Source of the DNA: a virus
Taxonomy: Duplodnaviria; Heunggongvirae; Uroviricota; Caudoviricetes
Length of the DNA: 5,910 bases
Reading direction: 5' to 3' (one strand)
Virus record (IMG/VR): IMGVR_UViG_2802429232_000005
The notes beneath the pieces are model-generated. The model worked only from the letters and a program-made list of their open reading frames with translations. It was not told the DNA's origin and searched no databases. The position numbers and the translations under genes were made by a program. This document shows, in pieces, positions 918 to 4,618 of the stretch (its first letter is position 1; every line of letters begins with the position of its first letter).

Positions 918-957
918 TGCGATAATAACACCATTAAGAAAACATCTTGTTTAAGGA
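918..957 (+). promoter_or_regulatory. Conserved leader module A: extended -10 (TGcGATAAT), AACA-tct-TGTT palindrome, SD AAGGA
   Basis: TGCGATAAT 918-926; palindrome 941-951; AAGGA 953-957, 7 nt before ATG 965. The module recurs upstream of other genes in the array. Confidence 0.5.
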
Positions 958-3041: not shown

Positions 3042-3102
3042 TGCCTTATCTACACTGCGATAATTACACCAACAAGAAAACAACATGTTTACGCAGTGAG
3101 GA
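3042..3102 (+). promoter_or_regulatory. Conserved leader module B: TGCCTTATCT, extended -10 TGcGATAAT, AAACA-aca-TGTTT palindrome, SD GAGGA
   Basis: TGCGATAAT 3056-3064; palindrome 3078-3090 (core AACATGTT is perfect); GAGGA 3098-3102, 7 nt before ATG 3110. Confidence 0.5.
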
Positions 3103-3109
3103 TATGCTC

Positions 3110-3391
3110 ATGACTGATTTCACCATTACCCCTAAAGCACAAAATGTATTTCTTGAATCATGGCTGGACTTGCCGGAAACAGAACAGCAAGAAATGGATC
3201 ATGTGGATTATGACGAGCAGGTAAGCACGCGATTCTTCCACTTTGAGGGATGCGTTTACGACATTGTCGACTTCATGCGAGATGACCGCTTCCCTGAATG
3301 GCACGCAAGCTATCCACTAAACGCCTTTGCCATGCTGATGATCCGTGTGGATGATTCAGGGGATACCATCGACATCGGTCTGCTCCACTAA
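3110..3391 (+). CDS. Hypothetical small, strongly acidic protein (93 aa); DNA-mimic-like composition
   Basis: ATG 3110 with SD GAGGA at 7-nt spacing. In-frame ATG 3104 is too close to the SD, and the track's TTG 2978 start would run through the promoter module. Hand count about 20 D/E vs 5 K/R. Stop TAA 3389-3391. Confidence 0.6.
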   Translation: MTDFTITPKAQNVFLESWLDLPETEQQEMDHVDYDEQVSTRFFHFEGCVYDIVDFMRDDRFPEWHASYPLNAFAMLMIRVDDSGDTIDIGLLH

Positions 3392-3396
3392 AGGCT

Positions 3397-3428
3397 AAGG
3401 CCACCAATGCTGGTGGCCTTAAATGACC
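3397..3428 (+). repeat. Hairpin repeat copy 2: AAGGCCACCA-atgc-TGGTGGCCTT + AAATGACC
   Basis: Perfect 10-bp stem with 4-nt loop, 5 nt after the stop codon; direct repeat of 2926-2956. Confidence 0.6.
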
Positions 3429-3520: not shown

Positions 3521-3588
3521 TTTGACGCCTTATTCGTACAACGATAATTAATACCAACAAGAAAACAATTTGTTATTTACGATAAGGA
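3521..3588 (+). promoter_or_regulatory. Conserved leader module C: sigma70-like promoter TTTGAC-N16-GATAAT, AACAA-t-TTGTT palindrome, SD AAGGA
   Basis: TTTGAC 3521-3526, GATAAT 3543-3548; palindrome 3564-3574; AAGGA 3584-3588, 7 nt before ATG 3596. Confidence 0.55.
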
Positions 3589-4078: not shown

Positions 4079-4080
4079 CT

Positions 4081-4109
4081 GAGAAGAGGGCCAGAAACGG
4101 CCCTTTCTC
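4081..4109 (+). terminator. Stable hairpin (GAGAAGAGGGCC / GGCCCTTTCTC, loop AGAAAC) after the 160-aa gene; weak U-tract
   Basis: About 11-bp stem with a 1-nt bulge; the loop carries the CAGAAACGGC repeat motif; the T-rich tail lies partly inside the stem. Confidence 0.4.
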
Positions 4110-4123
4110 TATAGCCACCAGCT

Positions 4124-4206
4124 GCCGCAGGGAAATTTTCAGAAACGGCAAGGAACGCATTCATGAGCCGACGGGAAACGGCCAGGATTTTTTCGGGAAA
4201 CGGCTG
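4124..4206. repeat. Second cluster of GGGAAACGGC-type direct repeats (4-5 degenerate units)
   Basis: cagggaaa (4129), cagaaacggc (4140), aggaacgc (4151), cgggaaacggcc (4172), cgggaaacggctg (4194). GCCGCAGGGAA at 4124-4134 also occurs at 1336-1346. Confidence 0.55.
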
Positions 4207-4334
4207 CATTCGCCTTTGTGTAGAAAAAAACATCGGGAAGCTGGTGGAATCCAACCAGCGGTTGTCGGACAGGTGAGCGGGGAAAATTATGATGACTTTC
4301 GTCGCCTGAGACATCCAGATTTCTTTCGTAGCAT

Positions 4335-4388
4335 AATCACATACGTGATTAAGTGGTGTGATTATGTGAAAAATCACGCGCACATAAT
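4335..4388. promoter_or_regulatory. Cluster of GTGATT / AATCAC inverted repeats; candidate operator or origin-like site
   Basis: AATCAC-atac-GTGATT at 4335-4350; ATTATGTG (4361-4368) and CACATAAT (4381-4388) form a perfect 8-bp inverted repeat; four GTGATT/AATCAC hexamers in alternating orientation. Confidence 0.35.
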
Positions 4389-4420
4389 ACGCGAGCGGAT
4401 ACGGAACAAAACAAAATGCC

Positions 4421-4448
4421 GATCCGCGCCGACAAATAAACGCGGATC
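4421..4448. other. Perfect 8-bp inverted repeat GATCCGCG / CGCGGATC with 12-nt spacer, containing two GATC sites
   Basis: GATCCGCG 4421-4428 and CGCGGATC 4441-4448. Confidence 0.4.
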
Positions 4449-4618
4449 ATAAAGCAAGACTAAAAGCCAATGATTAACCATACACCATAACGCAATATAA
4501 CGCGTTTTAAGCGCGTTAATGCGCTAAGTAATGGGTATATGCTGGTAAGGATATAAAAGCTCGTCTATGGCGTTATTTTTGCGCTTATTTTTATATTGTT
4601 GGAGTGAGTCAAAGACAA

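Follow-up and report, generated by a model that had tools for sequence, protein, structure and literature searches.

The open reading frame at positions 3110–3391 of the window (the whole stretch of phage DNA analyzed, 5.9 kb) is a real gene under purifying selection, and it codes for a hyper-acidic protein of 93 amino acids. The gene is conserved but dispensable in SSU5-like phage-plasmids. Its coding sequence (+ strand, stop codon included) is supported by the translation, a match to the phage protein family phrog_1845, PGAP gene calls, dN/dS ratios and an AF2 model. Profile matches identify the protein as a phrog_1845 homolog belonging to a divergent subclade. The gene and its PHROG are already catalogued, and no function, structure or study is assigned to them. 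The protein is an uncharacterized member of the broad class of small phage accessory proteins, not a demonstrated anti-restriction protein. As its best-supported mode of action, we tentatively propose the stoichiometric binding of another protein, most plausibly one of the host.

The window matches the Escherichia coli plasmid pLF82 with 96–97% identity over 99% of its length. pLF82 is also deposited as phage Cyrano, an SSU5-like phage-plasmid (97% identity to the window). Comparable matches are found in ~170 other plasmids (roughly 95–125 kb, mostly typed as non-mobilizable) and weaker ones in Klebsiella, Enterobacter, Yersinia and Salmonella plasmids and in Salmonella phage SSU5. These plasmid and phage matches place the window in an SSU5-like phage-plasmid, a type of element common in clinical E. 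coli, Klebsiella, Salmonella Typhi and Yersinia pestis (pMT1). The counterpart of the window in Cyrano contains small genes annotated as ‘hypothetical’ and is flanked by a MetRS gene and a transcriptional regulator. Neither the 93-aa gene nor any of its window neighbors had a match in Pfam, NCBIfam or PADLOC, and Rfam and tRNA scans of the window found nothing.

Two other regions of the window have unusual sequence features. A 241-nt tract at 60–300 has a strong bias toward A and C (A 105, C 74, G 35, T 27; AT skew 0.44), has no ORF matching any PHROG and is followed by a terminator-like hairpin at 381–407; a non-coding RNA or a strand-asymmetric element may reside there. A 37-nt repeat (GCCTTCGGGGAACGGCTGG...GGGAAACGG) is present in three copies (467–503, 511–547 and 4167–4203), located in two relatively GC-rich stretches (about 400–800 and 4080–4600) where the listed ORFs are short and overlapping. 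The repeats could be iterons, binding sites or structured RNA. CYRAN_104, the CDS in the Cyrano annotation that corresponds to this location, is not an intact ORF.

The acidic protein and its coding sequence

Translation of the reading frame yields MTDFTITPKAQNVFLESWLDLPETEQQEMDHVDYDEQVSTRFFHFEGCVYDIVDFMRDDRFPEWHASYPLNAFAMLMIRVDDSGDTIDIGLLH, with 20 D/E, 5 K/R, 4 H and 13 F/W/Y residues, a net charge of −15 and a pI of 4.11. The first-pass annotation had counted about 20 D/E against 5 K/R with aromatic residues interspersed, as is now confirmed, and had proposed from this composition that the protein might be a DNA mimic. Net charge per residue has a median of −0.017 and a 5th percentile of −0.10 among the 123 annotated Cyrano proteins. 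With the 93-aa start, the protein has −0.161 per residue and ties with the most acidic of them (CYRAN_59, −0.165). This rank makes it a real outlier whose acidity exceeds chance. Thus, the protein has the very acidic composition and low pI that characterize the class of DNA mimics.

Hyper-acidic small proteins are, however, a recurring feature of the Cyrano element, whose genome encodes several of them besides the 93-aa protein. A second one, of 109 aa (965–1294, + strand; phrog_7645), has the 21 D/E and 8 K/R residues that had been estimated for it, a pI of 4.19 and the fifth rank in acidity per residue among Cyrano proteins. Its gene carries the same promoter/operator module and its own hairpin and, in the phage collection, is found only in E. 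coli SSU5-like phages. We considered the 93-aa and 109-aa proteins as possible paralogs and rejected the idea (BLASTP E = 3.9, HMM E = 2.6); they are unrelated. CYRAN_59 (OV696614, 59105–59380) is a 91-aa protein that is equally acidic (20 D/E versus 5 K/R), and it adjoins the gene for an acidic 138-aa protein (CYRAN_58, 58633–59049) with the operator motif in its promoter. Another acidic protein (124 aa, net charge −12) is encoded in the window at 2400–2774, and its stop codon lies 2 nt before the gene for a very basic 47-aa protein (2777–2920; pI 11.3, net charge +9). Unlike most Cyrano genes, the latter (CYRAN_109) is expressed in the lysogen, with a level about 6 times that of the background. 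The 124-aa/47-aa pair is absent from the fetched Klebsiella, Enterobacter, Salmonella and Citrobacter relatives, where the homolog of the 131-aa gene directly precedes the 93-aa gene.

The start codon at 3110 is preceded at a distance of 8 nt by a ribosome binding site (GAGG, 3098–3101, + strand) that is kept in orthologs. An alternative ATG two codons upstream would leave a spacing of only 2 nt. The start is also supported by the PHROG profile, whose positions 1–93 align with residues 1–93 of 93. Furthermore, RefSeq/PGAP calls the identical 282-nt CDS in plasmids from Yersinia (Y. pestis pMT), Klebsiella, Enterobacter, Salmonella and Citrobacter. The longer 116-aa version annotated in Cyrano was rejected, as it would span a promoter/operator module that is repeated before other genes. 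Also rejected was the label ‘ABC transporter’ attached to the protein in RefSeq, UniRef and nr. The protein has 93 aa and lacks an ABC ATPase or permease and any Pfam or NCBIfam domain. Because no ABC or other domain is detectable, the label is a propagated annotation error, which this analysis corrects.

Pairwise dN/dS ratios between genera range from 0.05 to 0.18, with dS up to 1.6, and identify the reading frame as a protein-coding gene under strong purifying selection. This bears on the reading of the gene as a decaying, non-functional remnant whose acidity is meaningless, which we regard as hardly credible. Repeated gene loss in E. coli and Shigella lineages and the wrong database name would suit a remnant. 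Yet the ratios stay low over the whole range of dS, 652 plasmids have an uninterrupted frame of unchanged length, and the promoter, ribosome binding site and terminator are conserved; the confidently predicted fold also argues against decay. The selection analysis effectively refutes a non-functional ORF.

A repeat-flanked cassette and its putative operator

The gene lies between two hairpins that are copies of a 32-nt direct repeat. The left-hand copy (about 2924–2956, + strand; called as terminator-like at 2924–2951) serves as the terminator of the preceding 47-aa gene. The right-hand copy (3396–3427, + strand), directly 3′ of the stop codon, is a GC-rich hairpin and likely terminator with an RNA fold energy of −22.8 kcal/mol and a stem that is kept in orthologs. 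The two copies bracket a 471-bp cassette consisting of the 93-aa gene and its promoter. In the infectious phage PhiR41_1 (propagated on MG1655), this cassette is absent and the two hairpin copies are joined exactly into one hybrid (locus L002, 7190–7260). Losses have evidently occurred via recombination between the flanking repeats.

A tblastn search of the plasmid collection found the 93-aa protein in 653 plasmids versus 804 for the downstream neighbor. The counts for the gene and its neighbor were equal in Enterobacter (91 each), Yersinia (55), Salmonella (49), Citrobacter (25) and Cronobacter (10) and were 312 versus 345 in Klebsiella, 106 versus 219 in Escherichia and 1 versus 6 in Shigella. 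The gene is therefore missing from about half of the Escherichia relatives and kept in nearly all of those from the other genera (Shigella aside). These counts indicate that the gene is ancestral, usually kept, and lost in many E. coli and Shigella lineages. Its clean deletion in PhiR41_1 and in half of the E. coli elements further indicates that the life cycle does not need it. Further cassette-level variation at the locus is seen in Klebsiella plasmid pUCLAOXA232-4 (locus L092, 1010–1198) and in a Salmonella relative (locus L094, 998–1186), which have an extra 62-aa gene on the opposite strand between the 93-aa and 160-aa genes.

Upstream of the coding sequence is a module of ~76 nt that is repeated before the genes at 965, 1449, 2400, 3110 and 3596. 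From the sequence and its repetition, we infer that the gene has its own promoter with an extended −10 element (TGCGATAAT, 3056–3064, + strand). The extended −10 block also precedes the genes at 965, 1449, 2400 and 3596 and is kept in orthologs from five other genera. For want of a good −35 element, the promoter at 3056–3064 was missed by a simple sigma-70 scan. At the predicted transcript start is an operator-like dyad (AAGAAAACAACATGTTT, 3074–3090, + strand) with the core AAACA-N3-TGTTT and the symmetric form AAACAA-N-TTGTTT. Its position and symmetry are best read as those of a putative repressor operator. We rejected the reading of the dyad as an RNA hairpin because the loop would have only 1–3 nt. 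The whole promoter/dyad/RBS module is kept upstream of the orthologs in the five other genera, and these have a second dyad about 50 nt further upstream.

The dyad contains a 16-nt near-palindromic motif (AAGAAAACAAnTTGTTT) with further copies in the window (936–951, 1421–1436 and 3559–3574, in addition to 3074–3090). Cyrano has 13 coding-strand (+) copies with 0–2 mismatches, just downstream of −10-like boxes (OV696614 positions 53, 78, 29255, 32076, 58591, 70322, 80545, 81274, 93161, 95797, 96282, 97936 and 98421). They lie 8–82 nt, mostly 28–57 nt, upstream of the starts of CYRAN_1, 28, 32, 58, 70, 85, 87, 101, 105, 106, 110 and 111. The products of these genes include the terminase small subunit (preceded by two copies), ParA, a DNA helicase, RNR-beta and a TciA-like protein. 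This distribution looks like a dispersed operator regulon of the phage-plasmid, and the putative network could define the element's repressed gene set. Stable hairpins follow most window genes, including the 93-aa gene and both of its neighbors. As each of these genes has its own trailing hairpin, they are monocistronic cassettes.

Published RNA-seq data for E. coli LF82 are consistent with repression of the gene in the plasmid-prophage state. In overnight LB cultures, the 93-aa gene (CYRAN_110) had 6.7 normalized counts, below both the prophage median (9.8) and the cut-off for morons (49; PMC9928086, S1 Table), so that the gene is silent in the LB lysogen. Inside macrophages it was upregulated ~8-fold, from a log2 of about 2.3–3.1 to about 6, along with many other Cyrano genes (PMC9928086, S1 Table). 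The gene is not among the listed Cyrano morons (PMC9928086). Because the operator motif also precedes phage housekeeping genes for helicase, RNR and terminase, co-regulation with them points to a ‘lytic or derepressed programme’ and not to ‘anti-defense’.

A divergent clade of the phrog_1845 family

The 93-aa protein matches phrog_1845 (PHROGs v4, function unknown) over its full length (E = 3.9e-58). A word-indexed search found only 34 clusters, all from enterobacterial SSU5-like elements and many named ‘ABC transporter’. An exhaustive HMMER search with an SSU5-clade profile against 1.84 billion representatives retrieved 76 proteins, mostly of 85–105 aa and aligned nearly end to end. In the reciprocal test, the SSU5-clade profile reached distant members at E values of 1e-8 to 1e-3 (1.84 billion proteins), and all 63 aligned members (63/63) matched phrog_1845. 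The profile built from the 63-member alignment extended the family to 1140 clusters, 0 of them with a Pfam domain. A match to a cytochrome b5-domain protein (E = 0.03) was rejected, as it covers only a local beta-hairpin motif (F-x-Y-K-G-x-V-Y-D) and does not reflect homology. The N-terminal parts of longer ‘fusion’ members (P0049, P0052 and P0085) match only domains of unknown function. The sole match to PADLOC defense models was at chance level (Dsr1, E = 0.022), and no functional study came up in literature searches by PHROG id and protein accession.

All relatives with examined context are in phage genomes or phage-sized contigs. Members from cultured phages, always annotated as ‘hypothetical protein’, come from Edwardsiella, Vibrio, Pseudomonas, Pectobacterium, Erwinia, Marinobacter and Rhodococcus phages. 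Metagenomic members are in phage contigs of 40–185 kb, embedded in series of small genes that lack annotation; one of them adjoins a Phage_DsbA gene in a T4-like context. In the plasmid collection, phrog_1845 is almost confined to SSU5-like records (about 105–120 kb, mostly typed as non-mobilizable). We sought a conserved neighbor gene in 80 IMG/VR loci and found none: the commonest neighbor family was present in 14 of 80, at variable positions, and the recurrent neighbors (Kyano_Gp96, DUF932 and DUF6717) are all of unknown function. Thus, the conserved adjacent partner gene that marks an antitoxin or immunity protein was not found in the 80 viral loci, and in the window the gene is monocistronic. 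The lack of a conserved neighbor in the 80 loci suggests that the 93-aa protein acts alone and is not half of a pair.

The family's spread and the shared operator also bear on a phage-internal role, in which the protein would regulate or assist the element's replication, transcription or lysis-lysogeny decision (e.g., as an anti-repressor) or serve as an assembly chaperone. Such a role would agree with an operator common to replication, partition and packaging genes, with the strong conservation and slow evolution of the protein, and with the occurrence of the family in many unrelated phage types. We nevertheless consider it unlikely. An infectious phage and half of the E. coli elements have lost the gene cleanly, and it is never found in structural modules and has no conserved neighbor. 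Furthermore, a phage-encoded partner would need to be common to T4-like, FelixO1-sized, SSU5-like and actinophage genomes, which otherwise have little in common.

The SSU5 clade is only 23–42% identical to the rest of phrog_1845. In 175 distant relatives, 65–97% conservation was found in the N-terminal part at I6, T8, N9, N10, P12, R13, E/D20, L21, E25, E28, F29, D30 and Y31; in the middle at F42, F43, R44, Y45, K46, G47, Y50, E54, F55 and R57; and in the C-terminal part at W64, G66, D70, S71, F73, S74, G75, K/R79, E85 and G90. The SSU5 clade has in common with the family a hydrophobic core (I6, L21, F42, F43, Y50, F55, W64, F73, V87 and V89). It has replaced ten of the conserved positions (T8P, N9K, N10A, P12N, R13V, R44H, K46E, D70L, S71N and S74A), and G75 is also replaced. 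Instead of the family's N-terminal motif I-x-T-N-N-x-P-R with R44 and K46, the 93-aa protein has I-T-P-K-A-Q-N-V, H44 and E46. The register of the alignment is secure because I6 and W18 align without gaps. The nearest relative, P0037, has also lost the I-x-T-N-N-x-P-R motif and R44, K46, D70, S71 and S74. Mean net charge is −6.9 in the distant members versus −13.3 in the SSU5 clade, about twice as negative. Taken with the replaced positions, this difference marks hyper-acidity as a derived trait of the SSU5 clade, acquired in part through the loss of conserved basic residues.

The polar motif that most of the family conserves hints at a defined binding pocket. Having lost the motif, the SSU5 clade may differ in function from the family, or the family function may not need the motif. 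One candidate is ligand binding inherited from the family, with the protein serving as a ‘sponge’ or sensor for a nucleotide or other small molecule. Small phage proteins that sequester immune signaling nucleotides are an established class, and the 65–97% conservation of T8, N9, N10, P12, R13, D30, R44, K46, D70, S71 and S74 in the 175 distant relatives is a pattern more typical of a pocket than of a protein–protein interface. However, ten of those positions are replaced in the whole SSU5 clade, so that any family pocket is not kept here, and the fold has no similarity to known sponges in the PDB. We therefore rate an inherited ligand-binding role as very unlikely for this protein.

Two regions of the protein stand out. 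The densest acidic segment (residues 20–36, DLPETEQQEMDHVDYDE; 3167–3217, + strand) has 8 D/E and 0 K/R residues and forms short helices in the model. This acidic helical segment is family-wide: positions 20, 25, 28, 30, 35 and 36 are D/E in 73–97% of the 175 distant relatives. The second region is a mixed-charge aromatic loop (FMRDDRFPEWHA) comprised in residues 57–66 (RDDRFPEWHA; 3278–3307, + strand) and nearly invariant in the SSU5 clade, where D58, R60, F61, W64 and A66 are invariant and R57, D59, P62 and H65 nearly so. In the wider family the loop varies in length and sequence, with gaps or low conservation at 58–63, except for R57, W64 and position 66, which is occupied by a small residue (Gly in 89% of relatives). 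Within the SSU5 clade, variation concentrates in the acidic region (residues about 20–47), and residues 48–93, which include the loop, are almost invariant.

The AF2 model obtained from the 63-sequence alignment has a pLDDT of 90.8 and a pTM of 0.77. This alignment was used instead of one with only 20 close SSU5-clade sequences, which gave a pLDDT of 43. The fold is predicted with confidence as a beta-sheet with short helices (residues 18–20, 23–28 and 34–37). Sequence and structure searches of the PDB found no solved relative of the 93-aa protein. The family is large, phage-only here, confidently folded and without a solved relative, so a single functional assignment would annotate >1000 sequence clusters.

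Candidate modes of action and known systems

In the mechanism that we favor, the 93-aa protein would be a small, soluble, hyper-acidic alpha+beta accessory protein that is non-essential to SSU5-like phage-plasmids. Its single-gene transcription unit (extended −10, operator dyad at the transcript start, ribosome binding site and terminator hairpin) would be kept off in the plasmid-prophage state. Expression would be expected when the shared repressor is absent or inactivated, presumably upon entry into a new cell or induction. The protein would then act non-catalytically via one protein partner, most likely a host protein with a positively charged, possibly nucleic-acid-binding surface. Its binding surfaces may be the acidic helical segment (residues 20–36) and the invariant RDDRFPEWH loop. 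Sequence and PDB fold searches found no similarity to enzymes or other characterized families. Binding is more plausible than catalysis because the protein has 93 residues and no such match. Against this proposal, the conservation of the polar motif in the wider family hints at a ligand pocket over a protein surface.

A more specific form of protein binding is the DNA mimicry raised by the first-pass annotation, in which carboxylates would imitate the phosphate backbone and fill the DNA-binding groove of a restriction enzyme or other DNA-binding defense protein. The net charge of −15 in 93 residues, the pI of 4.1 and the 13 aromatics are in keeping with a mimic, as is an acidic helical segment with 8 D/E in 17 residues and acidic positions kept family-wide. 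The gene is also phage-only and repressed in the lysogen, and its relatives are in early-type gene arrays. A survey recognized few anti-defense genes in SSU5-group elements, which leaves an anti-defense role unfilled in this group (10.1101/2025.09.12.675607). Clear homology to acidic proteins of another kind (chaperones or secretion substrates, for example) had been named as a finding that would speak against mimicry; Pfam, NCBIfam, PADLOC and profile searches found none.

The remote-homology search against anti-restriction and anti-defense families (Pfam, PADLOC, and PDB sequence and structure) did not bear out the idea, as it revealed no homology to Ocr, ArdA, ArdB-KlcA or Arn. None of the solved mimics resembles the protein in sequence or fold. 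The folds of known DNA mimics are many and unrelated, however, and a new fold is thus no objection in itself. The average charge of the family is only −6.9, and the family keeps five basic positions (R13, R44, K46, R57 and K/R79) and the polar motif, when a pure phosphate-mimicking surface would predict otherwise. What varies in the SSU5 clade is the acidic segment, and what stays invariant is the mixed-charge aromatic loop. Slow evolution under strong purifying selection, with a near-invariant C-terminal half, is also less typical of arms-race proteins. Furthermore, the element thrives without the gene in E. coli, including strain K-12 with its EcoKI restriction system. The gene is also absent from the leading regions of conjugative plasmids, a typical location of mimics such as ArdA. 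These counter-indications are mild, and the genomic context is compatible with an anti-defense or host-takeover role without singling one out. Mimicry is compatible with all of the observations, its support coming from composition. On balance, the protein is a plausible candidate, but we consider it quite unlikely to be a true DNA mimic. Somewhat less probable again is the broader proposal that the protein and its >1000 phrog_1845 relatives form a new fold class of phage proteins that, each acting alone, inhibit DNA-binding immunity proteins of the host, with the SSU5 clade as a hyper-acidic, DNA-mimicking derivative that is made upon entry into a repressor-free cell.

A conserved, repressed, dispensable and hyper-acidic protein is a reasonable first candidate for how SSU5-like elements establish in new hosts. 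It is also a reasonable candidate for anti-defense screening, partly since SSU5-group elements have few recognized anti-defense genes and since assigning one function would annotate so many clusters.

The regulatory arrangement resembles two known systems. In phage P1, operators of the C1 repressor are scattered over the phage-plasmid. Cyrano similarly has one short operator-like motif at many separate promoters round its genome, but here the motif is a symmetric dyad (AAACAA-N-TTGTTT) and its operator role is putative. Morons are promoter-gene-terminator cassettes of temperate phages that are defined by their expression from the repressed prophage. Like them, the 93-aa gene is a stand-alone promoter-gene-terminator cassette that lies between repeats and that some close relatives have and others lack. 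Unlike them, it is expressed at or below background in the LB lysogen (PMC9928086).

The protein itself can be compared with known DNA mimics. Similarly to the 93-aa protein, the classical DNA-mimic anti-restriction proteins Ocr (T7 gp0.3) and ArdA are small, D/E-rich proteins of mobile elements, with a very low pI and aromatics interspersed in their sequences. Ocr and ArdA are made at entry into a new cell. Their fold is an elongated helical dimer, in contrast to the beta-sheet with short helices predicted for the 93-aa protein. Phage T4 Arn is a DNA mimic of about 92 aa with a mixed alpha/beta structure that inhibits McrBC and is encoded by an early gene of a large phage. The 93-aa protein is near-equal to Arn in size, is likewise acidic and is predicted to be mixed alpha/beta, and some phrog_1845 members reside in T4-like contigs.
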